Notes under the pieces: generated by a model
Told to the model about the DNA's origin: nothing
What the model saw: the letters and a program-made list of their open reading frames with translations, nothing else
Databases searched by the model: none
Shown: one piece after another, positions 1,833-20,847 of the stretch
Numbering within the stretch: the first letter of the stretch is position 1
Layout: every line of letters begins with the position of its first letter
Assembly (NCBI GenBank): GCA_016206285.1
Contig: JACQRW010000007.1
Span: forward strand, 16,455-80,454
Reading direction: 5' to 3'
Source of the DNA: Candidatus Sungiibacteriota bacterium
Lineage (GTDB): Bacteria > Patescibacteriota > Minisyncoccia > Sungbacterales > HO2-52-23
Length of the DNA: 64,000 nucleotides
Translations under genes and position numbers: made by a program

Positions 1833-2831
1833 ATGAAAATCCTTCTTACCGGCGGCGCCGGATTTATCGGCCACCATTTTGTCGAGCATGTGCTCAAGAA
1901 TACCGATTGGGATATTTTTATTCTTGACCGCCTGAACTATGCATCCAACGGCCTTGAGCGGTTGCGGGATATACGCGTGTTCGATGAAAAGCGGGTATTC
2001 GTATTTACCGCCGACTTTACCAAACCGATCGAGGAGGGTTTGCAGCAAGAAATCGGGCAGGTTGATTACCTTATCCATATGGGTGCAGAAACCCATGTGG
2101 ATAATTCGATTTCAGACCCCCGGAAATTCGTGTACGCAAACGTGGTCGGTACGCTTGAAGTTCTCGAGTTTGCCCGCCGCCAGAAAAATTTGAAAAAATT
2201 CATCTATTTTTCAACCGACGAAGTATTCGGACCCGCCCCTGAAGGCGTTGCATACAAAGAGTGGGACAGATACAATTCGGGCAATCCGTATGCCGCCACT
2301 AAAGCCGGCGGCGAAGAGCTGTGCCTCTCGTATGCAAACACCTATAACCTTCCCGTCATCATAACGCACACCATGAACGTGTTCGGCGAACGGCAGCACC
2401 CGGAAAAATTCATTCCCAAAGTCGTCAACCAAGTTCTCGCCGGAAAGACGGTCACTATTCATGCCAACAAAGAAAAAACCAAAGCAGGATCGAGGTTTTG
2501 GATTCACGCGCGCAATGTGGCCGGTGCGCTCCTGTTTTTACTCAGTCACGAAACAAAAAATGGCGACAAATACAATATAGTCGGCGAAAAAGAGGTTGAC
2601 AATCTTGCATTGGCCCAACTGATAGCCGCTGTCTTGAACAAAGAACTGAAATATGAAATGACGGATTTTCACTCATCCCGCCCCGGACATGACCTGCGCT
2701 ATGCTCTTGACGGAAAAAAGATGCGCGATATGGGCTGGACAATACCGCGGTCATTCGAATCGTCTCTTGAAAGCACAATCAGGTGGATGATCCATCCGGA
2801 CAATGCGCGGTGGCTCCGCATGGAAATATAA
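1833..2831 (+). CDS. NAD-dependent NDP-sugar 4,6-dehydratase/epimerase (RfbB-like extended SDR)
   Basis: N-terminal GGAGFIGHHF Rossmann motif, STDEVFG, catalytic YAATK (YxxxK); about 330 aa. Confidence 0.75.
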   Translation: MKILLTGGAGFIGHHFVEHVLKNTDWDIFILDRLNYASNGLERLRDIRVFDEKRVFVFTADFTKPIEEGLQQEIGQVDYLIHMGAETHVDNSISDPRKFVYANVVGTLEVLEFARRQKNLKKFIYFSTDEVFGPAPEGVAYKEWDRYNSGNPYAATKAGGEELCLSYANTYNLPVIITHTMNVFGERQHPEKFIPKVVNQVLAGKTVTIHANKEKTKAGSRFWIHARNVAGALLFLLSHETKNGDKYNIVGEKEVDNLALAQLIAAVLNKELKYEMTDFHSSRPGHDLRYALDGKKMRDMGWTIPRSFESSLESTIRWMIHPDNARWLRMEI

Positions 2832-5888: not shown

Positions 5889-6011
5889 CAGTAGCACGCA
5901 AAGAGCAGATGGTCAAGTTACGTGCGGGGCAAGAAAGTATATACTTTACATAATGACAATTCATCATTGCGCAACCAAAGGCATGTCAGAAGCGTTTTAA
6001 AAAGAAATCAT

Positions 6012-7790
6012 ATGTGCGGCATTATTGCTTTAACCGGAAACAAGATACGCGAGATATCGCCTTCGCACATTGATGCGATGCTGGACTTGCTTTCCCACCG
6101 CGGGCCCGATGACCGCGGGCTTTTACCATTTTCCTCGTGCATACTGGGACAGACGCGGCTTTCGATCATTGATCTGTCCGGCGGGCATCAGCCCATGAAA
6201 GATAATCAAAAAAATATTGCGGTTACATTCAATGGGGAAATTTACAACTACCGCGAACTCAAAACCGACCTTGAACAAAAGGGGCATGTTTTCTCAACCA
6301 AGTCAGACACTGAAGTGATCCTGAAAGCATATATTCAATACGGCATTGACTGTCCAAAATATCTTGAAGGCATGTTTGCATTTGCACTCTGGGACGAAGA
6401 AAAAAAGATGCTTTTCGGCGCACGGGATCGTTTTGGTGAAAAACCCTTGTACTATGCAAAAACAAAATCAGGAGACTTTATATTCGCATCCGAGATAAAA
6501 GCGCTGCTCGCCTCGGGCACCATTGAGCCGGTTATCAATAAAGAAGCCCTAGACATCTATTTGAGCCTGGCATATGTACCGCCGCACATGACCGTCTATG
6601 AAAATATTTCCGTAGTGCCGCCGGCTTCATGTTTCGTGCTTAAAAACAGCGAGATCAAGATAGAAACATACTGGGAACTCACAAAAAAAGAGGTGTCCGT
6701 TACCTACGCGGACGCCAAAGAGGAAGTAAGAAGGATGCTCGAACAGTCAGTCAAAAAAATGATGGTCGCGGATGTGGAAGTGGGCGCGCTGCTGTCCGGC
6801 GGGGTGGACTCCACATTGGTCACCTGCTTTAGCCAGCAAACATCAAGTTTTCCGATTAAAACTTTTTCAGTCGGGTACGAACACTATATAAATGAACTGC
6901 CGTTTGCCGAACAGGTGTCGAAGAAATTCCACACCGACCACCATACGCTCCAGGCAACCGGAGAGATGGCGGAAAGTTTGCGTATGGTTTGCGGGTCGCT
7001 GGACGAACCTCACGGGGATCCCTCCAATTTTCCCCAATATCTCGTTTCTCAATTCGCCGCCTCAAAAGTAAAAGTGGCTCTTACCGGCGACGGCGCAGAC
7101 GAATTATTCATGGGATACGGCTGGTACTGGAAACACCTCAATCTCTCATGGAAAGCTGATTTTTGGGAAAAGGCATTTCCGCGGCCGTTCAAAAACTTTA
7201 TCCGAAGTATCGAAATCTTCACCGCAACCCAAAAGCGCGGACTGCTCGCCCACTCCCCCCTTCGCGCCGCTGACTTTATTCCGGAACATATTCTGCATGC
7301 GGCCGGAGACGATATCGAAAAAATAAATCTTTTCGATCTCTCTTTTTATCTGCCCGGCAAGCTTTTGTCAAAAGTAGACCGCACCGCCATGATGAGTTCG
7401 CTGGAAACCAGATGTCCGTTTCTTGACCGCGAACTTGCCGAGTTTGTCTATAACCTGCCGCGAAATTTCAAGACGGACAAAAACAGCGGAAAGATCATCC
7501 TAAAAGACATCTTGTCCGATATCATGCCGCGCGATTTCGTATACCGCAAAAAACAGGGATTCGGAGCGCCGGTCAAAGTCTGGCTTGAAATCGAGACCAT
7601 GAGAAAGCTCGTTGCCGAAACCTTTGACAACAATGCGCCATTCTATGAATACATAGATAAAGAAGAGGTGCAGAAACTGCTTAAAAATTTTTACAGCAAA
7701 ACAGACGAGACGGTATATTATAAGATATGGACACTGCTTTGTCTCGGCCTTTGGTTTCAAACTCATCCTTCGACTAGCTCAGGATTGTAA
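6012..7790 (+). CDS. asnB: Asparagine synthase (glutamine-hydrolysing) family amidotransferase (AsnB/WbpS-like)
   Basis: N-terminal MCGI (class II glutamine amidotransferase Cys nucleophile), SGGVDS PP-loop and the whole AsnB architecture. Start taken at the internal ATG encoding MCGIIAL. Confidence 0.85.
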   Translation: MCGIIALTGNKIREISPSHIDAMLDLLSHRGPDDRGLLPFSSCILGQTRLSIIDLSGGHQPMKDNQKNIAVTFNGEIYNYRELKTDLEQKGHVFSTKSDTEVILKAYIQYGIDCPKYLEGMFAFALWDEEKKMLFGARDRFGEKPLYYAKTKSGDFIFASEIKALLASGTIEPVINKEALDIYLSLAYVPPHMTVYENISVVPPASCFVLKNSEIKIETYWELTKKEVSVTYADAKEEVRRMLEQSVKKMMVADVEVGALLSGGVDSTLVTCFSQQTSSFPIKTFSVGYEHYINELPFAEQVSKKFHTDHHTLQATGEMAESLRMVCGSLDEPHGDPSNFPQYLVSQFAASKVKVALTGDGADELFMGYGWYWKHLNLSWKADFWEKAFPRPFKNFIRSIEIFTATQKRGLLAHSPLRAADFIPEHILHAAGDDIEKINLFDLSFYLPGKLLSKVDRTAMMSSLETRCPFLDRELAEFVYNLPRNFKTDKNSGKIILKDILSDIMPRDFVYRKKQGFGAPVKVWLEIETMRKLVAETFDNNAPFYEYIDKEEVQKLLKNFYSKTDETVYYKIWTLLCLGLWFQTHPSTSSGL

Positions 7791-7793
7791 ATC

Positions 7794-8969
7794 ATGTATA
7801 ATCCATCTGAAATCTTTTGGGCATATCGGAACAAAATCACCAACAAACTGTGGGGCATGGTGCATATGCCCGCCCGCAGCACCATTCGACACGCTCATGG
7901 CAGGCAGAAAGGAATTATTCTCATCTCCTATATCACCGAGCCGTTCACGCTGGCGCCGTGGGAAAAGTTTTCCAATTTTCACACCATGTATTGGGAATGC
8001 CGCGAGATCGCGCGCCTGTTCGCGGAAAAAGGATATGCGTCTGACATTGTGAGCGCGGAAAATCTCTCCTTTGTCCCGACCAAACCCTATGCATTTTGCA
8101 TTGATGTGGAAGACGGCCTGCTGCGCCTTTCAAAACATCTTCCCGCCAACTGCAAAAAAATATTCCGTATTCTCAATCCCCATTGGAAAGCGTACAACGA
8201 TGCAGAACAGTTGCGGCTTGACTGGCTTGAAAAACGGCGGGGAGTACGCTTGCTGCCGCACCGCACAAGGCGACCTTCGCAAAATGCCGAGCTTGCGGAC
8301 TTTCTTGAAGGCTTTGGAAACAAAGCCGTATTCGGCACGTTTCGCCAATTCAACAAACCGATATTTTTCGTGCCGATTTCCGCAGTCATCCATTTTGACT
8401 TTCCGGAGAAGAAAGATTTTGCCGCCGCAGCCGAACACTTTATGTGGATAGGCGGAGGAGGGGCAGTACTGAAAGGCCTTGATCTTTGTTTGGAAGCATT
8501 TGCGAAAACGCCCGATCTGCATCTGCACGTATGCGGGCCGATCTACGGTGAGAAAGATTTTACTGACGAGTATAAAAAAGAACTGGAGCAGACCCCGAAT
8601 ATCCATGTGTACGGCAGAATAGACGTAGGCGGCGAACAATTTGCCAAACTTATCGAAACCTGCGGTGCCGTAATCTATCCATCCGGCGGAGAAGGCACCT
8701 CCGGCGCGATTGTGCAGGCCATGCATGCGGGCTTGGTGCCGATCATCACGCACATTACCGGCATACAGGAAGACGCCGGATACATTCAACTGGATGATAA
8801 CCCGACACCAGAGTCCATGGTGCAGGCCGCGCGCGATTTTTCCAACATGCCGCCTGACGAGATCCGTGATCTCTCCAAAAAAATCTGGGGGTACGCGCGC
8901 AAAACGTATACCCGCGAAGAATTCAGCAAGGCGTACAGGCGTTTCATCGAAGACGTGCTAAAATTATAA
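7794..8969 (+). CDS. Glycosyltransferase, GT-B fold (GT4-like C-terminal domain)
   Basis: C-terminal YPSGGEGTSGAIVQAMHAGLVPII motif, the E-x7-E-like region of retaining GT4 enzymes. Confidence 0.7.
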   Translation: MYNPSEIFWAYRNKITNKLWGMVHMPARSTIRHAHGRQKGIILISYITEPFTLAPWEKFSNFHTMYWECREIARLFAEKGYASDIVSAENLSFVPTKPYAFCIDVEDGLLRLSKHLPANCKKIFRILNPHWKAYNDAEQLRLDWLEKRRGVRLLPHRTRRPSQNAELADFLEGFGNKAVFGTFRQFNKPIFFVPISAVIHFDFPEKKDFAAAAEHFMWIGGGGAVLKGLDLCLEAFAKTPDLHLHVCGPIYGEKDFTDEYKKELEQTPNIHVYGRIDVGGEQFAKLIETCGAVIYPSGGEGTSGAIVQAMHAGLVPIITHITGIQEDAGYIQLDDNPTPESMVQAARDFSNMPPDEIRDLSKKIWGYARKTYTREEFSKAYRRFIEDVLKL

Positions 8970-9005
8970 GTATACAAATTCTCACGATCGTGAGAATTTG
9001 TATAC
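8970..9005. promoter_or_regulatory. 36-bp perfect palindrome GTATACAAATTCTCACGATCGTGAGAATTTGTATAC between two glycosyltransferase genes
   Basis: Begins 1 nt after the stop of the upstream gene and ends 9 nt before the next ATG. A second copy of the same architecture occurs at 29596..29631. Confidence 0.55.
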
Positions 9006-9014
9006 TAACGATAC

Positions 9015-9884
9015 ATGAATAGTCAGAAACAGCTCATCAGCGTTATCATACCGGTCTACAATTGCGAAAAGACGATTGCAATCGCGATTGATTCCATAAT
9101 CAACCAGACATACAAAAATCTGGAGATTATTGTCGTAAATGACGCGAGTACCGATACTACCAAAAGCATTGTGCAAACGATCGCGCAAAAAGATTCCCGC
9201 ATCAAGCTCGTAGATGCCGAAGACGACCCGGATCGCTTTGACGCGAAACTCAACCGCAACGTGAATGCTGGCTGGTCAGCCCGCAATACCGGTTTTCAAC
9301 ATGCACATGGAGAGCTTATCACCTTTCAGGATGCGGACGATGCTTCGCTCCTCAACCGCATTGAAATCCAGTATGATCTGCTGGCAAAATACGGCGCAAC
9401 GCACGTGTGTATTGACTGGATACAGTTTGACGAAAAATATCTTGGCACAAAAATCGACCCGTCCACATACCTTGATGATACCCGGATCATAAAGCCGCAG
9501 GAGATCTACGCCATGTCCCAACGCTCCAAAGGTCTCATCGCCAAAATCTTCCCGTCGCTGAACCGCGCAATACCCTTTCACCTGAAAAGAAAAAGAGTCA
9601 TCAATAAACTATTCTTCGGCTCGCTCGAAAACTACCCGGGCCAGGGCAACTGTCCTCTGTTCAGGCGCGAAGTCCTCGAAAAAGTCCGATTCCGAAAACT
9701 TGCGGACCGCGTCTGGCCGTCATTTATGGGCCGCGGTGCGGACAAAGACTTTAATTTCCAGGTCGCCGAAACATTCCATAACAACTACATATTTTTCATC
9801 CCCCTCTACCTGTGGCGCGTGAAAGACCAAAACCAGCGGTACCCGAACGGCATTGACAATATGGCTATTATGCCCGACAAATAG
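9015..9884 (+). CDS. Glycosyltransferase family 2
   Basis: ISVIIPVYNCEKTIAIAIDSIINQTYKNLEIIVVNDASTD motif. Confidence 0.8.
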   Translation: MNSQKQLISVIIPVYNCEKTIAIAIDSIINQTYKNLEIIVVNDASTDTTKSIVQTIAQKDSRIKLVDAEDDPDRFDAKLNRNVNAGWSARNTGFQHAHGELITFQDADDASLLNRIEIQYDLLAKYGATHVCIDWIQFDEKYLGTKIDPSTYLDDTRIIKPQEIYAMSQRSKGLIAKIFPSLNRAIPFHLKRKRVINKLFFGSLENYPGQGNCPLFRREVLEKVRFRKLADRVWPSFMGRGADKDFNFQVAETFHNNYIFFIPLYLWRVKDQNQRYPNGIDNMAIMPDK

Positions 9885-9928: not shown

Positions 9929-10909
9929 ATGCAGACAAAAACACTTGGGAGAACCGGAATCAAGGTCTCTATTATCGGGCTGGGCGGGGCAAATCTTGGC
10001 TTGCCTACGAGCAAGGCTCCATACTACCAGCATGTTGATAATCCGGAACACAATGCATACATGGTTGAATCCCTTGGCATTGCAACCGTTCATGCAGCGC
10101 TTAGAAGAGGGGTCACGCTGATTGATACGGCGCCGAAATATGGATACGGTATGAGCGAACAGATTATTGGAAAAGCTCTCCGGATGCGCCCCAATCTTGC
10201 AAGAAACTGCATGGTTACCACTAAAGTTGGGCTGGTGTATGCGGGAGACGGTTTTGACTACTCGCATGAGACCACTATGGAATGTATGTTCAGCAGTTCC
10301 GTGCGTCTTGGAATGGAACGCTTCTCGATCGTCTACCTTCACGACCCGATGGATTTTCCTATGGATTTCGTGATGAGCGAGAGTGGAGCCATGGGAGCTT
10401 TGCGTGAACTTCAGCGACGCGGGATTGTCCGTTATATTGGCATCGCGGCGGATGAACCGGAGACCGCCGCCGATTATATCGAGACCGGAGAGTTTGATGT
10501 TGCAACCGTTTCCGGCGCATGGAGCTTGATCAACCAAAAGGCGGCTGAACGTATTTTACCGGCCGCCAGAAAGCATAATGTCGGTATTGTGGCAACTACA
10601 GTGATAGAACGGGGTCTGCTCGCAACAGGCAAGCCGATCCCCGGGGTTCGCTATATCCAGCGGGATTTCTCGCCGGAACTTCTGGCGCATGTCGAAACAA
10701 TCGATGCGCTCTGTCACGAATTCGACATTCCGTTACTGGCCGCGGCATTGCAATGGGCAACCCGAGATCCGCAGATCGCAACCGCCATACCAGGCGCACG
10801 CACTCCGGAAGAGGCCCGCGAAAATGCCCTCGCCGGTATGATGTACATTCCCGAAAGTTTCTGGAAAGTGCTGGAATCCCTCATCCGCCATTTTGACACC
10901 CGCGTATAG
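9929..10909 (+). CDS. Aldo/keto reductase family oxidoreductase
   Basis: LGRTGIKVSIIGLGG, IDTAPKYG and overall AKR layout. Strong AGGAG ribosome-binding site upstream. Confidence 0.8.
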   Translation: MQTKTLGRTGIKVSIIGLGGANLGLPTSKAPYYQHVDNPEHNAYMVESLGIATVHAALRRGVTLIDTAPKYGYGMSEQIIGKALRMRPNLARNCMVTTKVGLVYAGDGFDYSHETTMECMFSSSVRLGMERFSIVYLHDPMDFPMDFVMSESGAMGALRELQRRGIVRYIGIAADEPETAADYIETGEFDVATVSGAWSLINQKAAERILPAARKHNVGIVATTVIERGLLATGKPIPGVRYIQRDFSPELLAHVETIDALCHEFDIPLLAAALQWATRDPQIATAIPGARTPEEARENALAGMMYIPESFWKVLESLIRHFDTRV

Positions 10910-10920
10910 TTATATCTACG

Positions 10921-11979
10921 CTAACCTTTTGAGCCCTTGCCGATGCGAGGGCTCGTTTTCATATAATCTTTCTGCCATTCGATAGTGCGTGCCAAGCCTT
11001 TTGAGAATGGAGTGAATCTGAATTTTTTCATTTCGCGTTTTATCTTGGCAAGATTAAGTTTTACAAGTTCCGGATCTTTTCCGATATGCGCGAGACCGGA
11101 AGTTTGAGCCGGAATGGCGTAGTCCGCATGACAGTATTTGGCAATTTTTTTTGCGAGATCAAGAATTGAGAGACTGTCTTTGCCGCCGACATTGTAGACC
11201 ATCTCGCGGCTTTCAAATGCGACAAATAAAATCATGGCAACGATATCGGCAATATATCCATACGTCTTTACCGATGTTCCCTGGTCAAGCAGAGAGATCT
11301 TTTTTTTCGTCAGGGCTTTTTGTATAAATTCGCTCATGACGCGCGTATCATCCGGAGGCAGGCCAGGGCCGTAGACATGCGAGATGCGGACAATTTTCGC
11401 ATTCACTCCCTTATTTTTTTTGTATGCCGCACACAACGCTTCGCCCAGGCGTTTTGATTCGGCATAGACGGATCTCGGCATATGCAACGGACAGTTCCCG
11501 TTAAAATCTTCTCTGACAGGGATAAGGCGGCTTGGAATATTGCCATAAATCTCCGCTGAACTGAAAAATACAAAAGTCGCGGACCGGGACGCTTCCAGAA
11601 GCGAGCGCGTGGCATCAACATTAATTGCGACGGTCGAAGCCGGATCTTGGACGAATTTCGCCGGCTGTGCATAGCCGGCTGCGTGAAAAATATAATCATA
11701 TCCTGCAAGATTGAACGGATGCGACAGATCAACGCGGCGATACGAAATACGCTTGTCATACCGCATCAGCGACTGTATGACCGGCCGGGGCCCGCTTAAA
11801 CTGACTGCATGGATCGTACAGCCAAGCCCAAGCTCGCGATTCGCGAGCGAGAGAACGCTCACGAGATACTGGCCCAGAAACCCGTTGGCCCCGGTAATCA
11901 GTATCTTCTTCCCTTTTGCCTTTCTTATGTTCACGCGGGCAAGAATTTCCCGGCAGTCAGCCTCAATGATATTATTCAT
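10921..11979 (-). CDS. UDP-glucuronate decarboxylase-like extended SDR (UXS/ArnA-decarboxylase-like)
   Basis: KKILITGANGFLGQYLV Rossmann motif; HVYGPGLPPDDTRVMSEFIQKAL resembles UXS YGPRMxxNDGRVVSNFI. Start taken at the internal ATG (MNNIIE), 2 nt after the upstream stop. Confidence 0.65.
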   Translation of the reverse strand: MNNIIEADCREILARVNIRKAKGKKILITGANGFLGQYLVSVLSLANRELGLGCTIHAVSLSGPRPVIQSLMRYDKRISYRRVDLSHPFNLAGYDYIFHAAGYAQPAKFVQDPASTVAINVDATRSLLEASRSATFVFFSSAEIYGNIPSRLIPVREDFNGNCPLHMPRSVYAESKRLGEALCAAYKKNKGVNAKIVRISHVYGPGLPPDDTRVMSEFIQKALTKKKISLLDQGTSVKTYGYIADIVAMILFVAFESREMVYNVGGKDSLSILDLAKKIAKYCHADYAIPAQTSGLAHIGKDPELVKLNLAKIKREMKKFRFTPFSKGLARTIEWQKDYMKTSPRIGKGSKG

Positions 11980-13813
11980 GAGTTTCAGTTTTTTTTCCTT
12001 TGATGCCACCGCCCGGAAGCGGAGGAGTTTCCCATCCCTCGACCGGATCAATGAGCATATTTTTGCGAAACTCGTCACGGGGCAAATAGGGATACATGTC
12101 TTCGATGGGAGTGGCCCATCCGAACACGCGCGGCTCATAAGTATACCAGTTGCCGCAGTCAACATCACAGACAACCGGCCCGTCATAGGCAAGAACTTCT
12201 TGGATCATTTTTTGAGCATCATCATTGTTTACCAGCCGCCGCGCAGGAATACCGTAGGCATCAACAACCTTCACAAAATCCGGAGGCGTGTATCCCTTGG
12301 GGCCGGACGCTTCATAGCGCCCCTCCACATTTGTTTCCTGAAACGCCTTGATGATGCCGTATACATGGTTGTTGATAATGAAAGTTTTTATTTTAATGCC
12401 ATACATGAGCAACGTCTGCAATTCCTGGATATTCATGGTAAATCCCCCGTCTCCGATAATGCAGACGACATTGCCCTTTTTATCGGAGCCAAACCATGCG
12501 CCCATAGCCCCGCAAAAAGAGAACCCCATAGGCGAATTGCCATTATTGGTAAGGTAACGCTGTCCATTTTTGGTCTCAAACGCATGATTACTGGTCACAA
12601 TATTGCCGCCGCAGTCGGCAATCAGAATATCCTGCTCCTTCATCTCCTGCGACAAAATCCTCATAAATGCGTACGGATTCACATATCCCTGCTGCTTGAA
12701 AAATTCAGGACGCACCGGATCATACTTTTCTTTCCATTCTAAAACCTGTTTCGTCCACGCCGATACGTCCGGCAGTGCAGCGCCTGCAAGTTTCTTTTCA
12801 AGCCGCTCCAGAAAAAGTTTTGCATCGCATAAAATACTCACATCAAACGGCACCTGCTGCAATTTTTTCTGCAGAAGCGCCGGATCAACGTCCACCACAT
12901 ATTTTTTCGCCGCACGCGCGAATGTTTTTAGATTTCCGCCGGTAATGCGGCCGGATATCCGGCTTCCCACCGCAAGCAGGAGATCGCTATTTTGAAGCCC
13001 GAAGTTTCGTCCTCTGCCGCCATACGTCCCCACACGCCCGCCATAATACTCATAATCGGAGGGGACGATATCAAGCGCATTCCATGTCGGAAAAACCGGG
13101 ATTTTCAGGATACGCCCTACGCGCTGCAGAAGTGCTTCTGCATGCGCTATCCCAACTCCCCCGCCTGCCAATATGGCAGGACGTTTGGCCTTCCGGAGAT
13201 CTTCCAAAAATCCGTCTATTCTTTTATCAATAACAGCAACATCATACGCAGTACGACTCGCCTCAATATCAAATCCAACCAACTTTTCCGGATCTACCTG
13301 GACTTTTTGAAGATTCTGCGGAATATCCAAAAGCACCGGCCCGGGCCGGCCGTCGGTCGCAAGAAACAATGCTTTCTCAAGCTCATACTTAATATCCTCG
13401 GCCTTGGTAACAAGCTTGGCGTATTTGGCAATGGGAGATACGATCGAAACAATATCCGTTTCCTGAAATCCCACTTGCCGGATAGAGGGATCGGAGCGCA
13501 GAAACTCCGAGTTAATCTGCCCGGTAATGAAAAGTGCCGGAACCGAATCGTAATAACAATTGCCTATGGGAGTGACCAGATTCATGCCGCCAGGACCGCT
13601 GGTGGCGATGGCAACGCCCGGTACACCTTTTATTTTTGCATAACCTTCCGCGGCAAACCCGGCTGCCTGTTCGTGCGCCATTGCCACGTATCCGGTCTTG
13701 TCCGTCCGGGTGAATGCATCAATCAGATAGGCATTTGCGGCGCCCGATACGACAAACATTTTGTCGATCCCCCGGCCGGCAAGATATTGAATGACAAAAT
13801 CTGCAAGTTGCAT
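11972..13813 (-). CDS. Thiamine-pyrophosphate-dependent enzyme, acetolactate-synthase-large-subunit family (YerE-like candidate)
   Basis: 613 aa with N-terminal TPP Pyr domain, a central domain, and a C-terminal TPP-binding GDGGF...N motif (IIGDGGFTMN). Confidence 0.8.
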   Translation of the reverse strand: MQLADFVIQYLAGRGIDKMFVVSGAANAYLIDAFTRTDKTGYVAMAHEQAAGFAAEGYAKIKGVPGVAIATSGPGGMNLVTPIGNCYYDSVPALFITGQINSEFLRSDPSIRQVGFQETDIVSIVSPIAKYAKLVTKAEDIKYELEKALFLATDGRPGPVLLDIPQNLQKVQVDPEKLVGFDIEASRTAYDVAVIDKRIDGFLEDLRKAKRPAILAGGGVGIAHAEALLQRVGRILKIPVFPTWNALDIVPSDYEYYGGRVGTYGGRGRNFGLQNSDLLLAVGSRISGRITGGNLKTFARAAKKYVVDVDPALLQKKLQQVPFDVSILCDAKLFLERLEKKLAGAALPDVSAWTKQVLEWKEKYDPVRPEFFKQQGYVNPYAFMRILSQEMKEQDILIADCGGNIVTSNHAFETKNGQRYLTNNGNSPMGFSFCGAMGAWFGSDKKGNVVCIIGDGGFTMNIQELQTLLMYGIKIKTFIINNHVYGIIKAFQETNVEGRYEASGPKGYTPPDFVKVVDAYGIPARRLVNNDDAQKMIQEVLAYDGPVVCDVDCGNWYTYEPRVFGWATPIEDMYPYLPRDEFRKNMLIDPVEGWETPPLPGGGIKGKKTETHE

Positions 13814-13837
13814 ACAATCGATATTAATTAGTTTACA

Positions 13838-15058
13838 CTATAGCGCTTTTGCCGCAGCCCGTGCAAGTCTCCGGCAGCCTTCCAATAATTTTTGCGAAGT
13901 GTTTGCATAGCATATGCGGATATATTTTTTCCCTCCGGGGCCGAATCCGGAACCGGGACAAACCACCACGCCGTGTTTTTGCATGGCGTATTCGGCAAAT
14001 TGATCTCCGTCCATACCGGTCTTTGAAACATCTATAAAAAGGTAAAAGGCGCCGGATGGTTTTGAAAATTCGAACTTTTCAACTTTACCAAGCTCGCGCA
14101 AAACGATTTGGCGCAAACGCGCATATTCTCTCAAATATCGGGCGGAAAATTCATGGCGGCGCTCAAGCGCGGTCACGCATGCATCCTGCAAAAAAGGCGG
14201 AACGCACGAAACAATCGTCTGGGAAAGCAGAGCTATTTTCTCGATGATCTGCTCCGGCCCTATGGCATACCCAACCCGCCAGCCGGTCATGGCAAACGGC
14301 TTTGAAAAACCGTTGGTCACAATCACTCGCTCGCGGCATGAATCAAGCGTCCCCGGAGAAAAATGCGCCCCCTCATATACCAACCGTGAATAGATTTCAT
14401 CACTCAAGATGAATACGTTATGTTTTTTTGCCAGCGCATAAATTTTTATAATATCGCTTTTCGGATATACGCTGCCGGTAGGATTTGAAGGAGAATTAAT
14501 AACAATAAGGCGCGTTTTTGACGTAATACGCTTCTCAACCTCTGCCGGATCAAAACGAAAATTGTTCGTATGGGTTATTGGCACGCGCACGCCCTTGATC
14601 TTGAGCATATCAAGCACGGCGTTATAGGTAACAAAAGCGGGATCAGTCAGGATCACTTCCTCGCCCGAATTTACCAGCACGGCAAGAACATAATAAATCA
14701 GCGGGTTCGCCCCGGAAGTCACCACGATTTGGGACAAATCCGGCGTAAACTTGAAATCTTCTTTGACCGCCTTCTGAATCGCTACGCGCAATGTGTGTTC
14801 TCCATATGAGCTGCCGTAGTGCGTATGTCCGGCTTTCAACGCCGCAATCGCACTTTTCTTTACCTCCGACGGCATTTCAAGATGCGTATCTCCTATTTCA
14901 AAATGGATAAGGTCTTTACCCTGCCGCTCTAAATCCTGTGCCGCACCCAATATCCGAAACATAGATTGACCCACAATCCGCTTGGCAAAATCCGAAAACA
15001 CCAGACTCGATCGTGCCGCAGATATTTCTTTCCGGGTTTTTCTCTCTGATGTACTCAT
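13838..15058 (-). CDS. Class I/II PLP-dependent aminotransferase (aspartate-aminotransferase family)
   Basis: NGFSKPFAMTGWRVGY PLP-lysine motif and overall AAT layout. Start taken at the internal ATG (MSTSERK), consistent with the upstream gene ending at 15072. Confidence 0.8.
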   Translation of the reverse strand: MSTSERKTRKEISAARSSLVFSDFAKRIVGQSMFRILGAAQDLERQGKDLIHFEIGDTHLEMPSEVKKSAIAALKAGHTHYGSSYGEHTLRVAIQKAVKEDFKFTPDLSQIVVTSGANPLIYYVLAVLVNSGEEVILTDPAFVTYNAVLDMLKIKGVRVPITHTNNFRFDPAEVEKRITSKTRLIVINSPSNPTGSVYPKSDIIKIYALAKKHNVFILSDEIYSRLVYEGAHFSPGTLDSCRERVIVTNGFSKPFAMTGWRVGYAIGPEQIIEKIALLSQTIVSCVPPFLQDACVTALERRHEFSARYLREYARLRQIVLRELGKVEKFEFSKPSGAFYLFIDVSKTGMDGDQFAEYAMQKHGVVVCPGSGFGPGGKKYIRICYANTSQKLLEGCRRLARAAAKAL

Positions 15059-15071
15059 GCGCGATAGACCG

Positions 15072-16040
15072 CTATATCTCTTTCGGGAGAAAAGGTTTTT
15101 TAAGCAGTCTTTTTGTATTCCGCACCACGGAGATTTTGAGCGCCGCCAGCGCCGCACGTCCGGAAACCTGCGGGCGCACCCAGTCGGAAAACCACTCCGG
15201 TAAATGCGGGGATTTCTCTTCAATCTTTTTATGAATCAGGTTTGACTGGTGTACCGCCTCGATCACGGCCATATTTTTCCCCTGCGCCTTATGCCACGCA
15301 AAAAACGCATGCGTATCCTTGGGCAGGCAATGGCCGCCGTATGAGCGCCCGTACCGGAGATAGCCCTTTTCTTCAAAAATAAAATTGAGCATCGCCTCGT
15401 TTCTGCTCACTGCCGCCTCATCGGTCGGAAGCGCTATGGCATTGCCGAATTCGTTGACAAAAGCTACCCGGAGCGAATTCCAGATGTTAGACAAATATTT
15501 GAGGTATGAGGCTTCTTCCGGCGTGCCGTAAAAAGTCTTGACCGCGGCGTTTTCCCAGCGGTCGAAAAAACTCGGCCTTGGCGCGTCTTCTTTAGTGCGC
15601 GAGCCGACAATAAAATAATGCGGCACCATGCACTCCTCCACTGCTTTTTTTTCATGGAGAAATTCCGGCACATAGTAATCAAACTCAAGCGTCTTCAGGT
15701 GCCCCGGCAATACGGTCGAACGAAGGATCACGCCGCCCTTTGCCTCTTTAAGCGGCTCCAGCGCTTTGCGGATCGCGGAAATATCCTGCTCGCCGTCCGG
15801 CATGACCCGGTCGCCCACGCACACCATATACCACGTATCCGGCCCATCCTTCTCAAGCACCCGGGACAAGGGTTTTATCCTGTCATAGGTCTTTTGGTGC
15901 GTATCCGCATAACGGAGCACCGGCGTCTGCACGTCGTAATAAAAGACATCGTAACCCGCATGTGAGAGCGCCAGGGCATTGGCCTGCCCGACCCAGCCGA
16001 ACCCCACGATAACCACCTTCTCTTGTGATGATGAACTCAT
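15072..16040 (-). CDS. Nucleotide-sugar dehydrogenase family protein (UDP-glucose/GDP-mannose 6-dehydrogenase-like), unusually short
   Basis: VVIVGFGWVG (Rossmann), VPEFLHEKKAVEE and GGHCLPKD catalytic-Cys motif. Only 322 aa, so the C-terminal domain is reduced. Confidence 0.65.
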   Translation of the reverse strand: MSSSSQEKVVIVGFGWVGQANALALSHAGYDVFYYDVQTPVLRYADTHQKTYDRIKPLSRVLEKDGPDTWYMVCVGDRVMPDGEQDISAIRKALEPLKEAKGGVILRSTVLPGHLKTLEFDYYVPEFLHEKKAVEECMVPHYFIVGSRTKEDAPRPSFFDRWENAAVKTFYGTPEEASYLKYLSNIWNSLRVAFVNEFGNAIALPTDEAAVSRNEAMLNFIFEEKGYLRYGRSYGGHCLPKDTHAFFAWHKAQGKNMAVIEAVHQSNLIHKKIEEKSPHLPEWFSDWVRPQVSGRAALAALKISVVRNTKRLLKKPFLPKEI

Positions 16041-16184
16041 AAGATATTTACTTCAGTTCTACGATAATGTAATGTATAGTATAATCGCTTTTTGAGAGAT
16101 ACGCAAGCCATGCCTACCGGCAGACAGGCCAAGTTTATAGATAGCAGTATAACGAGAAAACGATATAAAAAGTTTCCACACAGT

Positions 16185-16727
16185 ATGAATAAAAAAATAA
16201 AAACCGTAGTACCGCAGTCTCGATGGATCCCGGACGAGCTTTTTCAGGCAATCCAGAAAAACATGCCGGTTGCGTGCGTTGATTTGATCGTACTCCGCCG
16301 CAGACAAAAGGGTATGCTCGAAACGCTCCTCATCAAAAGGAAAATTTATCCGGAACAGAGAAAATGGTGCCTGATCGGCGGGCGCATACTCAAAAACGAA
16401 TACACCAAAGACACCATCAAGCGGCAGGCCAAAGAAGAACTCGGCGTATCGGTTAAAATCCTGCCGCCGTGGAATGAAACGAATCCTTTTGCGGTTTTCA
16501 ATGATCCGATTTCCGACAAACAAAAACATTTTGTTGCGCTCGCCTATCCGGTCGTGATCACTAAAGGCGCACTGAATGCCACCGGCCCGGAATTCAGCGA
16601 AGCACGCTGGTTCCCACTTGATAAACTTCCCGCACGAATCGGCTTCTACCACCCAAAAGTGCTCGCAATGTTTTCCCGCGCTATGAAAAAAGGCCAGCAA
16701 AAGCCGACCGTTAATCTGTCTCAATAA
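16185..16727 (+). CDS. Nudix hydrolase (NDP-sugar hydrolase candidate)
   Basis: Nudix box GGRILKNEYTKDTIKRQAKEELGV. Start taken at the internal ATG (MNKKIK). Confidence 0.75.
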   Translation: MNKKIKTVVPQSRWIPDELFQAIQKNMPVACVDLIVLRRRQKGMLETLLIKRKIYPEQRKWCLIGGRILKNEYTKDTIKRQAKEELGVSVKILPPWNETNPFAVFNDPISDKQKHFVALAYPVVITKGALNATGPEFSEARWFPLDKLPARIGFYHPKVLAMFSRAMKKGQQKPTVNLSQ

Positions 16728-16739
16728 GAGGATAAGCGA

Positions 16740-17315
16740 CTAGTCGAGGAGATAGTCCAAGGCAAGCGTAAGCGCCACCCATGACATAGCAATTTCCAAA
16801 TGCATGTCATCAAGACGACCTCGCAGAAGATTTCTGGCGCGTTTCGGATCGATAAGCACGACTTCGCTCTCCGGCATCTTCACCAGATACGCCCCCGTAG
16901 CAAGAAAAAAGTAATGTTCGCCACCGTCAATTTTGTCGGAAAAGTCAACCATTGGATCCTCCCGAAGTATGATCCAGTTTGTCGCTCCATAACCGGTTTC
17001 CTCAGTAAATTCACGTTTGGCGGCATCTAAAGGTGTCTCATCTTTTTTCACTCCGCCGGTAGCTGCCGTGAGCATGCGCTTCATCTGACCATACTTTGGC
17101 TCGCGTACCAAGATAATGTTGCCCGCATTGGTATGACCAATGACAACAGAAAAAGACCTTCCTTGCCGGTCCCACAGAAATTGCGGTTCGCGAATTATTC
17201 CACCTGAAGTTTCCACTATACGGCGGGTAACTTTGAAAAATGGGTTATCGTAGGCGATTGATTCTGAAACAATTTTGCCGACTTCCGTAGTATCATTTGG
17301 TTGTCGTTGACTCAC
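16740..17315 (-). CDS. Nudix hydrolase
   Basis: Nudix box GGVKKDETPLDAAKREFTEETGY. Confidence 0.75.
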   Translation of the reverse strand: MSQRQPNDTTEVGKIVSESIAYDNPFFKVTRRIVETSGGIIREPQFLWDRQGRSFSVVIGHTNAGNIILVREPKYGQMKRMLTAATGGVKKDETPLDAAKREFTEETGYGATNWIILREDPMVDFSDKIDGGEHYFFLATGAYLVKMPESEVVLIDPKRARNLLRGRLDDMHLEIAMSWVALTLALDYLLD

Positions 17316-17395: not shown

Positions 17396-18385
17396 ATGTC
17401 AAAAATACTTATCACCGGCGGAACCGGATTTATCGGATATCATCTGGCAAAACGCTTGGTCGGCCAGGAGCACGAAGTCGTGCTCGCGGATAATTTTTTC
17501 CGCAGCGAGCGCGATGCCGATCTTATAGCGCTTCTTGAACAGCCCAATATCAAACTCATCGAAGCAGATCTGACTGATCCGGCATTATGGGACGCGCTTG
17601 GCACCGGATATGATTATGTGTACCACCTGGTGGGCATTAACGGGACAAAGCTCTTTTACGAAATCCCCCACGAAGTGCTGCGCATCGGAGTCACTACTAC
17701 GCTCAATGCGCTTGACTGGTTCAGAACCAAAAACAATCAGCCAAACGCGAAGATACTTTATACCTCCTCCAACGAGGCATATGCCGGAGCGCTTGATGCA
17801 TTCGGCAAGCTCTTGATCCCCACGCCGGAAAACGTACCGCTGGTGATCGCCGACCCCTACAACCCGCGGTGGTCGTACGCCGGACAAAAACTCATCGGAG
17901 AGCTTTTGTTCATCCACTATGCAAAAGCATACGGTTTTCGCATGTCCATAGTACGACCGCATAATTTTTACGGCCCGCGCGAGGGATATTTGCACGTGAT
18001 ACCGGAGATTATCGAGCGCATCCACGAGCAGCCCGATCCGTTTCCCATTTTTGGAGCCGATACTACGCGCTCTTTCTGCTATATTGATGACGCAGTGGAA
18101 GCGATCCAGACCGTCATGGAATCGGACAAGACGGATAACGGCACCTACCATATAGGCACGCACGAGGAGACGCTGATTAAAAACCTGATCGAAAATCTGT
18201 TCACGCTCATGAACTGGCATCCGAAAGAATTGGATATTCAAAACTCGCCCGAAGGCAGCGTAAAGCGCCGCCTGGCTGACGTCTCCAAAATCAAGGCCGA
18301 CATTGGATGGGAAGCAAAAATCGGATTGGAAGAAGGTCTGCGAAAAACTATTGAATGGTATACGGCGCATCCGCATAAAAAATAG
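17396..18385 (+). CDS. NAD-dependent epimerase/dehydratase (extended SDR), tandem paralog A
   Basis: ILITGGTGFIGYHL Rossmann motif and catalytic SYAGQK (YxxxK). Confidence 0.8.
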   Translation: MSKILITGGTGFIGYHLAKRLVGQEHEVVLADNFFRSERDADLIALLEQPNIKLIEADLTDPALWDALGTGYDYVYHLVGINGTKLFYEIPHEVLRIGVTTTLNALDWFRTKNNQPNAKILYTSSNEAYAGALDAFGKLLIPTPENVPLVIADPYNPRWSYAGQKLIGELLFIHYAKAYGFRMSIVRPHNFYGPREGYLHVIPEIIERIHEQPDPFPIFGADTTRSFCYIDDAVEAIQTVMESDKTDNGTYHIGTHEETLIKNLIENLFTLMNWHPKELDIQNSPEGSVKRRLADVSKIKADIGWEAKIGLEEGLRKTIEWYTAHPHKK

Positions 18386-19399
18386 ATGTCAAAAATACTT
18401 ATAACCGGCGGGGCCGGTTTTGTCGGATACCATCTGGCAAAACGGCTGGCGGATCAGGAACACGAAATAGTACTCGTTGATAATTTTTCGCGCAACGGAC
18501 GCGATGCCGATTTACTGACCCTGCTTCAACGGCCGAACACCAAGCTTATCGAAGGAGACCTTACCGATCCGGCATCATATGAGAAATTTGGCACCGGATA
18601 TGATTATGTATACCACCTCGCAGGCATCAACGGATTCCGGCAGTTCATGGACATGCCGCATGAAGTGCTGCGAGTCGGCGCTGCCACGGCTTTAAATATC
18701 CTTGACTGGTTCCGGACAAAAAACAATCCGCCGGCAGGCGGACAAGGCGCAAAAATTCTTTTTACCTCAAGCAACGAAGTATTCACCGGAGCACACGAGG
18801 CATTTGGTGCACTGCCCGTTCCCACGCCGGAAAATGTGCCATTGGTGATCGCCGACCCCTACAACCCGCGGTGGTCGTATGCCGGTTCAAAGATCATCAG
18901 CGAATTGTTGTTCATCCACTATGCCAAAGTGTATAACCTGCGCATGGTGATTGTGCGGCTCCACAATCTTTACGGCCCCGGTGCCGGATATGATGCCATG
19001 ATCCCAAAATTCATTGGACGCACTCATAATCGCCTTGACCCGTTCCCCATGTTCGGTCCGGACGATCTCCGCGCATCATGCTATATCGCAGACGCGGTCG
19101 AGGCTATGCAGACAGCCATCGAATCTTCCGCCACTGACGGACAAACATACCATATCGGCGACTCCCGCGAGGCCACGATAAAAACCATTTTGGAAACCAT
19201 GTTTGAGATCATGCAGTGGCATCCGAAAGAATTTGACATCAAACCGTCTCCGAATGGTCCGCCAACTGGCGGATCAACCCGAGATATACTCGACGTCTCC
19301 AAAATCAAGACCGACATTGGATGGGAAGCAAAAACCTCGCTTGAGCAGGGATTACGAAAAACCATCGAGTGGTACCTGGCGCATCCGGCCCAATCCTAA
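18386..19399 (+). CDS. NAD-dependent epimerase/dehydratase (extended SDR), tandem paralog B
   Basis: ILITGGAGFVGYHL and SYAGSK; about 60-65% identical to paralog A over the full length. Confidence 0.8.
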   Translation: MSKILITGGAGFVGYHLAKRLADQEHEIVLVDNFSRNGRDADLLTLLQRPNTKLIEGDLTDPASYEKFGTGYDYVYHLAGINGFRQFMDMPHEVLRVGAATALNILDWFRTKNNPPAGGQGAKILFTSSNEVFTGAHEAFGALPVPTPENVPLVIADPYNPRWSYAGSKIISELLFIHYAKVYNLRMVIVRLHNLYGPGAGYDAMIPKFIGRTHNRLDPFPMFGPDDLRASCYIADAVEAMQTAIESSATDGQTYHIGDSREATIKTILETMFEIMQWHPKEFDIKPSPNGPPTGGSTRDILDVSKIKTDIGWEAKTSLEQGLRKTIEWYLAHPAQS

Positions 19400-19596: not shown

Positions 19597-20847
19597 TCAG
19601 AAAATCTCCGGCTTGGGAAGCGGCATGATGAATTTGCCTTTGTAGCCGGCGGCGCGAAGTTTATCCATGAGCTCGTGGCCAATGTGCCAGGAAAGCATGA
19701 GTGCGAATTCGGGCTGATCCTCGAAGAGTTGTTTTTCATCAAGCACCGGAATATGCGTGCCGGGAGTGAACATGCCGATCTTTGGCGAGCCGGCGCGCTC
19801 TACGGCGTAGTCGAGCAATTGCTCGTCTATCTTGGCAAATCCGAGCAGCGTATTCGATCGACACGGGCTGCCGATACCCACAATGCGGCCGCCCGTCTGC
19901 TTGCACTCGATCAGCACGCGCAGCAATTCGTGTTTTGCGCCAACCGCATCAGCCGCAAACTCGCGGAGTTTCTTAATATCGTATAGCCCGGCTTCTTTTT
20001 CTTTTTTCATGAGTTCTTTGACCCGTACAGATGGAGCGTGCTTTCCCTTCATGGCATACACGCGAATGGAACCTCCGGCAGCGGTAATGCGCTCCGCATC
20101 CACAATACTCATGCCATACTGGCTAAAAAGATATTGCAAAGGTTTCAATCCATAAAACCGCAAGTGCTCGTGATACACCGTATCAAACTCAAGCTTTTCG
20201 ATAATGTCCATCAGGTATTGCGATTCGGAAACAAACACGCCGTCTTTATCCAAAACGGTTTTGATGCTTGCCATAAGCTCCGGCATGTTGATGATATGGG
20301 CAAACACATTAGTCGCGGTCACAAAACGCGCCTTGCCGTATTTTTTGACAACTGCGCGTGCAGTTTTCAAATCAAGAAACGCCTGAATCGTCGGGATCTT
20401 GTTTTTGTTCGCCACCTTTGCCGCGTCAGTCGGCTCAATGCCCAGCACCCGCAGCCCCCTTTCTTTGAATTGCGCGAGCAACGAGCCGTCGTTGGAGCCG
20501 ATGTCTATAATCAGATCTTTGGGCTTGAAATGGTATTGCTCATCCATAGTCTCGGCAAGCTGGCGGAAATTGCGGATAAGCATGTTGGTCATGCCGGTGC
20601 GGTACGGATAGTTTTTCGGAAACACGATCTCCGGATCAATGATATAGTCCACCTGGGTCAGCCCGCACTTGGTGCAAAATTGCAGATTGAGCGGATAGGT
20701 CATCTCATGCACTAATCTGTCAGTAAGATACTCCTGCGGAATGGGCTGATGCCCCAAAGAGAGCACCGGCTGCAATTTCGTATTCCCGCACACCTGGCAT
20801 TTGATAACCGGCCCGATATGGCGCGATGTGGTTTTTTTTGTAGGCAT
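19597..20847 (-). CDS. NDP-hexose C-methyltransferase family (zinc-ribbon + class I SAM MTase + C-methyltransferase C-terminal domain; TylCIII/TcaB9-like)
   Basis: N-terminal CQVCGNTKL...HQPI zinc ribbon, IIDIGSNDGSLL SAM motif, about 416 aa, typical of sugar C3/C5-methyltransferases. Confidence 0.75.
   Translation of the reverse strand: MPTKKTTSRHIGPVIKCQVCGNTKLQPVLSLGHQPIPQEYLTDRLVHEMTYPLNLQFCTKCGLTQVDYIIDPEIVFPKNYPYRTGMTNMLIRNFRQLAETMDEQYHFKPKDLIIDIGSNDGSLLAQFKERGLRVLGIEPTDAAKVANKNKIPTIQAFLDLKTARAVVKKYGKARFVTATNVFAHIINMPELMASIKTVLDKDGVFVSESQYLMDIIEKLEFDTVYHEHLRFYGLKPLQYLFSQYGMSIVDAERITAAGGSIRVYAMKGKHAPSVRVKELMKKEKEAGLYDIKKLREFAADAVGAKHELLRVLIECKQTGGRIVGIGSPCRSNTLLGFAKIDEQLLDYAVERAGSPKIGMFTPGTHIPVLDEKQLFEDQPEFALMLSWHIGHELMDKLRAAGYKGKFIMPLPKPEIF

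Follow-up and report, generated by a model that had tools for sequence, protein, structure and literature searches.

A candidate sugar C-branching cassette around a YerE-like thiamine diphosphate enzyme in a Patescibacteria glycan cluster

We analyse here a four-gene operon on a 64,000-nucleotide stretch of the Candidatus Sungiibacteriota contig JACQRW010000007.1 (contig positions 16,455 to 80,454; this whole stretch is called the window below, and coordinates are counted from its first letter). On the minus strand, at 16040..10921, four packed open reading frames (ORFs) encode, in this order, a short UGDH-like dehydrogenase, a class-I aminotransferase (AT), a thiamine diphosphate (ThDP) enzyme and an extended short-chain dehydrogenase/reductase (SDR), which we call SDR8. 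The best explanation of this arrangement is that an accessory UGDH-like gene stands together with a conserved AT-ThDP-SDR8 unit, and we give about an even chance to the proposal that this unit builds a C-branched (acyl- or hydroxyalkyl-) nucleotide sugar for the glycan cluster surrounding it. The core of the proposal is the ThDP enzyme, which, judging by profile scores and trees, is YerE-like and not an IlvB, and which probably performs sugar C-branching. As set against the YerE/YerF and ErwE/ErwF/ErwI systems, the cassette belongs to an uncharacterised, widespread YerE-like clade with a swappable donor supplier.

Branched-chain sugars are rare and strongly antigenic parts of bacterial surfaces, and YerE-like enzymes are sought as biocatalysts for chiral tertiary alcohols. 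To our knowledge, the surface glycans of Patescibacteria are essentially unknown, and the cassette would give a concrete handle on their surface chemistry. What is more, a ThDP family wired to an AT, a PanB-like enzyme or NeuB across distant uncultured lineages would enlarge the set of branched sugars to be expected in nature as well as the enzyme toolbox.

The operon and its ThDP enzyme

Read 5' to 3', the junctions of the operon (Table 1) are a 13-nucleotide (nt) gap, a 24-nt gap and an 8-nt overlap between the ThDP and SDR8 genes (ATGAATAA), the last of which was reproduced by an independent gene call on identical metagenome contigs. The 5' boundary is placed at 16040 because the next ORF upstream on the same strand, 221 amino acids (aa) long (16059..16724), is the antisense shadow cast by a NUDIX gene on the plus strand: it has no family match, and its identity to the closest relative, locus L005, is 55% as against 79% for the NUDIX protein. 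For the same reason, a six-gene operon starting with a NUDIX gene and this 221-aa unknown was rejected. The AT length of 406 aa is counted from the first ATG past the upstream stop, its exact start being uncertain, and a scan for promoters and terminators gave counts equal to the shuffled expectation, from which no evidence is drawn. A sequence-only reading that preceded this analysis had described four closely packed minus-strand genes at these coordinates and had given their products family labels; the coordinates hold, and all four labels are correct at the superfamily level by Pfam, while all four proteins stay below the NCBIfam equivalog cut-offs. The same reading had likened the ThDP enzyme to YerE, assigned the AT to the AspC-type class I and not to DegT/ArnB, and seen the operon in a glycan setting with a sugar C-methyltransferase, and in each of these points it is borne out by the results given below.

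Scored against NCBIfam, the ThDP enzyme finds the IlvB model TIGR00118 on top, with 390 bits against a cut-off of 538, and it stays under every IlvB equivalog cut-off. Among solved structures, JanthE (8rph) scores 344 bits, ahead of PpYerE (5ahk) with 267 and plant acetohydroxyacid synthase (AHAS) with 251. In neighbour-joining (NJ) trees, which used a single AHAS reference (A. thaliana), the family of the window enzyme is monophyletic in 100/100 bootstrap replicates and joins JanthE and the homologue from locus L012 in 98/100, and the YerE-like group is split from the A. thaliana AHAS and two distant homologues in 100/100. Pairwise identity gives no separation (33.5% to JanthE against 32.0% to AHAS), and the YerE-like placement rests on HMMER scores and the bootstrapped NJ trees rather than on such values. 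In addition, a C-terminal tail of the form PxEDxxPxxPRD is common to the window enzyme and JanthE, with AHAS and PpYerE lacking it. The enzyme has the three-domain fold, the catalytic Glu of the HEQ motif and the GDGG motif in common with IlvB/AHAS, H47-E48-Q49 and G454-D455-G456-G457 being invariant in 22 sequences, and it differs from IlvB/AHAS in its sub-cut-off score and in having neither a regulatory subunit nor ilvCD neighbours in the window. Members of the family come from Patescibacteria, Nitrospira and Prochlorococcus as well as from many marine and groundwater metagenomes; no cluster among the best 120 falls below 65% identity, 80 metagenome loci lie at 52-80% identity, and the relatives overall span 52-89%. 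Annotation pipelines call these genes 'acetolactate synthase' and 'UDP-glucuronate decarboxylase', names that are probably mistaken.

Both JanthE and PpYerE have been characterised, as YerE-like enzymes joining 2-oxo acids to ketones (PMC12247030, PMC12188165). JanthE, from Janthinobacterium sp. HH01, is the closest homologue of the window enzyme that is both characterised and solved, and in vitro it couples C3-C6 2-oxo acids to ketones; its ThDP motif is CDG, whereas the window family has the canonical GDGG. Compared with the YerE systems, the window enzyme belongs to a clade of its own, approximately 31-33% identical to PpYerE and JanthE, and its hosts are uncultured Patescibacteria, Nitrospira, Prochlorococcus and marine taxa. 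The donors of JanthE, ErwE and MyGE are C3-C8 2-oxo acids, JanthE and ErwE also use ketones as acceptors, and the characterised clusters encode a donor supplier, a ThDP enzyme, an NAD(P)H oxidoreductase and the genes for a keto sugar (PMC9306805, PMC12247030, PMC12188165). In particular, the 2-oxo-acid donor in the erwiniose, caryophyllose and gastriose clusters is made by an aldolase encoded beside the ThDP gene (PMC9306805). The same predicted logic of donor supply, addition and branch-ketone reduction applies to YerE/YerF of Y. pseudotuberculosis (yersiniose A), to ErwE/ErwF/ErwI/ErwJ, to MMAR_2332 and to MyGE, the window differing from the YerE/Erw clusters in that its donor supplier would be a class-I AT and not an aldolase. 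Held against the acyl-branched-sugar scheme of Steitz et al. 2022, the window has the oxidoreductase beside the ThDP gene, namely the overlapping SDR8. It has an AT in the place of the pyruvate aldolase, with a PanB-like enzyme or NeuB there in relatives, and an RmlB-type enzyme as its only 4,6-dehydratase, in place of the CDP-glucose 4,6-dehydratase and DegT-like E1 of the scheme. DegT-family (DegT/E1) genes are in fact absent from the whole window and, since the CDP-3,6-dideoxy pathway is thus missing, the acceptor must differ from that of the YerE/Erw systems.

Genes that travel with the ThDP enzyme

In order to survey the neighbours of the ThDP gene, ORFs were called and neighbouring genes clustered in 88 loci with a ThDP homologue at least 52% identical to that of the window, start sites and gaps in these loci being partly approximate. 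All 88 are nucleotide-sugar or glycan loci, with Gmd, Fcl-like SDRs, RmlC, DegT, glycosyltransferases, NUDIX proteins, or a GHMP kinase with a nucleoside triphosphate (NTP) transferase. Counting up to four genes away from the ThDP gene, 22 loci have a class-I AT and 29 have a PanB-like enzyme of the ketopantoate hydroxymethyltransferase type (Pfam, 324 bits), and the two are never found there together (0/88; Fisher p = 4e-5, uncorrected for phylogeny). Where the flanks are complete (46 loci), one of the two is present in 37. At L012, whose ThDP enzyme is sister to the window family and groups with JanthE, the place of the donor supplier is taken by NeuB and a HAD phosphatase. What ATs, PanB and NeuB have in common is that they produce 2-oxo acids, and the unit conserved across the loci is AT-ThDP-SDR8. 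The L012 locus itself, from a member of the Verrucomicrobia (L012:5088-13199), reads CDP-Glc-type 4,6-dehydratase, DegT/E1-like protein, SDR8-like SDR, NeuB, HAD phosphatase, ThDP enzyme and FkbM methyltransferase, an order pointing to a ulosonic acid as the donor of a long polyhydroxylated branch. In marine loci (for example L010, L035, L037, L038, L041-L047, L051, L052, L056, L058, L060 and L061), the PanB-like gene stands directly upstream of the ThDP gene, often with B12-binding radical S-adenosylmethionine (SAM) enzymes, RmlC, Fcl-like SDRs and DegT added; one such PanB-ThDP locus is in a Prochlorococcus genome.

Loci of yet another type (L004, L024, L026-L031 and L033) encode a GHMP kinase, an NTP-transferase, a class-I pyridoxal phosphate (PLP) enzyme and a B12-radical-SAM enzyme, followed by the ThDP gene, and several of them run on into a multi-domain methyltransferase/glycosyltransferase of approximately 1750-2150 aa. 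The PLP enzyme of these loci is about 30% identical to the window AT, and could be a CobD-like decarboxylase instead of a transaminase.

The window AT scores 207 bits with the Pfam family Aminotran_1_2 and 33 bits, over a partial stretch, with DegT. Its best matches in the PDB are the aromatic and aspartate aminotransferases (ArAT/AspAT) of P. horikoshii at 246 bits, and the top NCBIfam models are aspartate aminotransferases, all 25 of those listed remaining under their cut-offs (the best named housekeeping equivalog reaches 315.6 bits against 550). The PLP-binding Lys, Asn, Asp and Tyr and the Arg that binds the alpha-carboxylate are invariant in 22/22 cassette-linked homologues and, therefore, the substrates of these enzymes should be amino or keto acids. 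Moreover, the class-I AT is not a mere stand-in for a DegT sugar aminotransferase, since 11 of the 22 AT loci carry a DegT protein in addition. Because of this co-presence, of the retained Arg and PLP residues, of the mutual exclusion with PanB-like genes and of the swap for NeuB, we see the AT as a supplier of donors rather than a sugar aminotransferase, and consider it slightly better than an even bet that it hands a 2-oxo acid to the ThDP enzyme. Patescibacteria are generally regarded as amino-acid auxotrophs, and making 2-oxo acids from imported amino acids would be a sensible route for them.

Turning to SDR8, its best match in the PDB is human UXS1 (hUXS1, 106 bits), followed by the CDP-6-fructose reductase HS5.17 of C. 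jejuni (92 bits). In 116 homologues, S140, Y172 and K176 are invariant, and the residues whose equivalents bind the pyrophosphate in HS5.17 are kept almost throughout (R169 in 113/116, K/R238 in 116/116). The Asp at the end of beta2 with which UXS binds NAD is missing, the aligned residue being A or C, and D/E occurs at neighbouring positions in at most 29% of the 116, this value being that of the preceding position. E143, the equivalent of E120 in hUXS, is present in 88% of the homologues, with Ala in a marine subgroup, and an equivalent Glu is also found in the non-decarboxylating reductases HS5.17 and RMD. JGI pipelines label SDR8 homologues as UDP-glucuronate decarboxylases; in our view, a fair reading of the sequences is that 'UXS-like' states a similarity. 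HS5.17 (8v4g), a CDP-6-D-glucitol synthase, has in common with SDR8 an N-terminal helix before the Rossmann fold, a GANG motif, the x-E pair and the Arg/Lys pyrophosphate ligands, and it simply reduces a nucleotide-linked ketone with NADPH. It is only about 25-30% identical to SDR8, however, and is paired with a cytidylyltransferase and not with a ThDP enzyme. What is more, its 2'-phosphate ligands Arg56 and Lys60 are not conserved in SDR8 and Arg208 is present in UXS as well, and the idea that SDR8 uses NADP(H) by homology with HS5.17 was dropped.

In the survey, the SDR8 gene stands no more than four genes from the ThDP gene, and mostly right next to it, in 20/88 loci, and 28 contigs are common to the match lists of the two proteins. 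At L003, L064, L069 and L012, it occurs together with Gmd or CDP-type 4,6-dehydratases, so that a keto sugar is already supplied beside SDR8 there. A UGDH-like gene is found near it only in the window and L005, and at L013 (Bacteroides), where the ThDP enzyme is YerE-like, a different SDR of 306 aa is present. By analogy with the known systems, SDR8 may be a YerF-like reductase of the branch ketone, a role to which we give a trifle more than even confidence; the structural comparison here is with UXS and HS5.17, YerF, ErwF and MygF entering it by role only.

The first gene of the operon behaves differently. Namely, the UGDH-like gene accompanies the ThDP gene in 2/88 loci (the window and L005), with four contigs common to both match lists. 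Its product has no match to UDPG_MGDP_dh_C, and scores 103 bits with TIGR03026 against a cut-off of 189.8, while the Lys/Asn pair K181 and N185 and the catalytic Cys motif GGHCLPKD (G236-H237-C238-L239-P240-K241-D242) are invariant in 35 sequences. In an AlphaFold (AF2) model with a mean confidence (pLDDT) of 90.9, a single helix, 294-314, replaces the C-terminal domain that binds the nucleoside diphosphate (NDP), and the top 50 Foldseek matches of this model are all NDP-sugar 6-dehydrogenases. The short length is not an artefact, since more than 100 homologues of 306-342 aa share it, next to a few fragments and fusions of approximately 545-547 aa with a class-I SAM methyltransferase. As a side observation, this domain-lacking family, whose proteins measure about 310-325 aa, is Patescibacteria-wide and has the conserved tail LPEWFSEWVRP. 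In three loci without a ThDP gene (L099, L100 and L101), the UGDH-like gene overlaps the gene of an SDR with 57-69% identity to the tandem SDRs encoded at 17396-19399 of the window, SDR_17396 and SDR_18386, and only about 25% to SDR8; L099 resembles the window cluster minus the AT-ThDP-SDR8 cassette. SDR_17396 keeps the NAD-binding Asp (ADNF) and the motifs SSNE, NFYGPR and TRSF, and SDR_18386 keeps the Asp and SSNE, the other two motifs having diverged to NLYGPG and LRAS; the L005 orthologues are 90% and 77% identical, respectively. From these comparisons, the UGDH-like gene would be an accessory to the cassette, its conserved partner being a UXS-like SDR of the 17396-19399 type. In other words, because of the coupling at L099-L101, any pair of dehydrogenase and decarboxylase in the window would consist of the UGDH-like enzyme and a product of 17396-19399, and not of SDR8.

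Predicted pathway and competing readings

The pathway that we propose has three steps. In the first, the AT would deaminate an alpha-amino acid to the 2-oxo acid. In the second, the ThDP enzyme would decarboxylate this acid and add the resulting acyl-anion equivalent to an NDP-4-keto sugar at its keto carbon, giving a tertiary alcohol with an acyl branch. In the third, the ketone of the branch would be reduced by SDR8, leaving a 1-hydroxyalkyl group, in the manner of YerF, ErwF and MygF. The candidate acceptor is the product of the RmlB-type dehydratase at 1833-2831, and precursor genes are indeed at hand in the window in the form of this 4,6-dehydratase, a GalU-like enzyme and a second NTP-transferase; a less likely acceptor would be a 4-keto-pentose made by the UGDH-like enzyme and the UXS-like SDRs at 17396-19399. 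Diversity of side chains would come from swapping the donor gene, be it an AT, a PanB-like gene or NeuB with a phosphatase. In its wider form, to which we lean with rather less than even confidence, the proposal is that the ThDP family as a whole defines undescribed C-branched surface sugars, with side chains from swappable 2-oxo-acid suppliers and often with B12-radical-SAM enzymes beside these. The product of the window would then be a glycan residue carrying the carbon skeleton of an amino acid on a C-C bond. A bolder variant would take the 4-keto-pentose as the acceptor, which would add to eurekanate a second branched sugar of pentose origin.

That said, several points weigh against the proposal. 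The best solved homologue of SDR8 is a decarboxylase, UXS1, and Glu143 is kept in most of its homologues (88%). JanthE is only about 33% identical to the window ThDP enzyme, and the members of the ThDP family are known from sequence and gene context alone. The canonical genes for CDP-3,6-dideoxy-4-keto-glucose are absent from the 64-kb window, and the model gives no role to the co-transcribed short UGDH-like gene. Finally, the statistic for the exclusion of AT and PanB-like genes ignores phylogeny, and 37/88 loci, many of them with incomplete flanks, have neither gene.

What, then, if SDR8 were a decarboxylase after all? The sequence-only reading had paired the dehydrogenase with the terminal SDR, in the role of a UXS, for turning a hexose into a pentose. 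Along this line, the UGDH-like enzyme would produce a uronate, SDR8, acting as a UXS/ArnA-type enzyme, would convert it to an NDP-4-keto-pentose, the ThDP enzyme would branch the latter and the AT would aminate it. Such a route would make sense of the hUXS1 match, of the S-x-E and YxxxK motifs, of the JGI label and of the co-transcription of all four genes in the window and L005, and for everninomicin an acetyl-branched sugar derived from a pentose has been put forward (PMC10338323). In that proposed eurekanate route, EvdS6 and EvdU5/EvdS3 do bring together a UXS-type SDR, ThDP-dependent acyl transfer and a 4-keto-pentose acceptor. However, the ThDP enzyme there is a heterodimer resembling the E1 of pyruvate dehydrogenase, and EvdS6 is a proven NAD+ decarboxylase, whereas SDR8 has no NAD-binding Asp and shows no linkage to the dehydrogenase across genomes. 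Namely, it is the ThDP gene with which SDR8 travels, while the dehydrogenase occurs with the ThDP gene at two loci only and elsewhere, in three loci, overlaps an SDR of the SDR_17396 type. Likewise, a marine subgroup of SDR8 proteins has Ala in place of the UXS Glu, the S/A-E pair and the unusual N-terminal helix are also present in HS5.17, a plain NADPH reductase and the second-best solved homologue, and an NDP-sugar aminotransferase would not need the alpha-carboxylate Arg that the AT has kept. The pairing is not upheld by these comparisons, a decarboxylase role of SDR8 is less likely than a YerF-like one, and we find the pentose route unlikely.

Two further readings assign the AT or the ThDP enzyme a different task. 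If the AT acted after the ThDP enzyme, it would turn the branch ketone into an amine, giving a 1-aminoalkyl-branched sugar, and SDR8 would catalyse some other step such as epimerisation or redox chemistry at C-4. The AT gene does adjoin the ThDP gene in 22 loci and, according to reviews, acetyl branches can be modified by reductases, transaminases and oxygenases; yet the 22 ATs all keep an Arg typical of amino-acid substrates, the known sugar aminotransferases are of the DegT family, which is an extra presence in half of these loci (11/22), and the strict exclusion between AT and PanB-like genes would be hard to explain with an AT acting on sugars, all of which makes branch amination improbable. 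A related suggestion of the sequence-only reading, that a keto acid built by the ThDP enzyme is then transaminated, is improbable on chemical grounds: the products would be acyloins, which are not alpha-keto acids, and IlvC and IlvD are missing. The reverse order, with the AT feeding the ThDP enzyme, fits the comparative data better. One can also picture a module that makes no sugar at all, in which an amino acid would pass through a 2-oxo acid to an aldehyde or acyloin (ThDP enzyme) and on to an alcohol (SDR), later attached to the glycan as a substituent. The order AT-ThDP-reductase mirrors the Ehrlich pathway and the acceptor sugar of our own proposal is still a candidate only, but the ThDP enzyme has carboligases rather than simple decarboxylases as its nearest relatives, SDR8, an extended SDR, keeps both residues that bind the NDP pyrophosphate, and the wider family sits amid Gmd, Fcl-like, RmlC and DegT nucleotide-sugar genes; we take this Ehrlich-type module for a long shot. 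As for housekeeping branched-chain amino-acid metabolism, that is, an IlvB and an AspC/IlvE that ended up inside a glycan cluster by chance, it would account for the names of the top NCBIfam models of both proteins, but it is effectively refuted by scores far under the curated cut-offs, by the bootstrap separation of the family from AHAS (100/100) and by the lack of ilvN, ilvC and ilvD in the window and in the 88 related loci. The outcome that would have refuted the sequence-only reading, namely a ThDP enzyme placed with IlvB, a housekeeping AspC/IlvE and branched-chain neighbours in relatives, is not what the scores, the ThDP trees and the loci show.

The glycan cluster around the operon

The first 43 kb or so of the window form a single large glycan cluster of the ABC-transporter type. 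It encodes a Wzt-type ABC transporter ATPase with a C-terminal domain, many glycosyltransferases of the GT1, GT2 and GT11 families, methyltransferases, and two NTP-transferases, one of which is the GalU-like enzyme. The closest relative, L005, is a contig of an uncultured 'Candidatus Saccharibacteria' metagenome-assembled genome, with syntenic genes 82-92% identical to those of the window, followed by Sungbacteria, Parcubacteria and other Patescibacteria. The coordinates of the operon genes and of their main neighbours are collected in Table 1.

Table 1. Operon genes and neighbouring features of the window
Feature	Coordinates	Strand	Basis and remarks
RmlB-type NDP-hexose 4,6-dehydratase	1833..2831	+	STDE and YAATK motifs; TIGR01181 263 bits
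AsnB-type amidotransferase, GT1, GT2	5922..9884	+	Pfam; TIGR01536 481 bits, over cut-off
Extended SDR 'SDR8'	10921..11979	-	352 aa; closest solved homologue human UXS1
YerE-like ThDP carboligase (putative), cassette core	11972..13813	-	613 aa; Pfam TPP_enzyme_N/M/C
Class-I AT	13838..15058	-	406 aa; AspC subgroup Ib-like; Aminotran_1_2
Short UGDH-like dehydrogenase	15072..16040	-	322 aa; Pfam UDPG_MGDP_dh_N and central domain; operon gene 1
NUDIX hydrolase B	16110..16727	+	Nudix box; Pfam NUDIX 1e-16; 79% identical to L005; diverges from operon start
NUDIX hydrolase A	16740..17315	-	Pfam NUDIX; convergent with NUDIX B
Tandem paralogous UXS-like SDRs (SDR_17396, SDR_18386)	17396-18385 and 18386-19399	+	best PDB match hUXS1, 101 bits
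NDP-sugar C-methyltransferase	19597..20847	-	Pfam Methyltransf_13/14/23 (TylC3-like domain set)

Several of these neighbours recur in relatives. The block of AsnB, GT1 and GT2, convergent to the cassette, is conserved next to it in Patescibacteria relatives: it is syntenic in L005, L008, L009 and L011, with L006 retaining GT1 and GT2 only. The RmlB-type dehydratase has an orthologue in L016 that adjoins an NTP-transferase, and the C-methyltransferase is syntenic in L005 at 92% identity. NUDIX genes adjoin the ThDP gene repeatedly, in several unrelated loci (L017, L018, L085-L089 and L093).

Two minor observations can be added. On the plus strand, an aldo/keto reductase gene (9929-10909) converges on the 3' end of the operon with an 11-nt gap, and it is not found in the syntenic L005. 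Further inside the glycan cluster, at 23820-27199 on the plus strand, four overlapping genes encode proteins like the beta (ATP-grasp_2 and Citrate_bind) and alpha (287 bits, under cut-off) subunits of succinyl-CoA ligase, a 234-aa protein resembling citryl-CoA lyase (199 bits, the cut-off being 212) and a hexapeptide acyltransferase; from these family matches, the group looks like a module for an unusual acyl-CoA used in glycan acylation.

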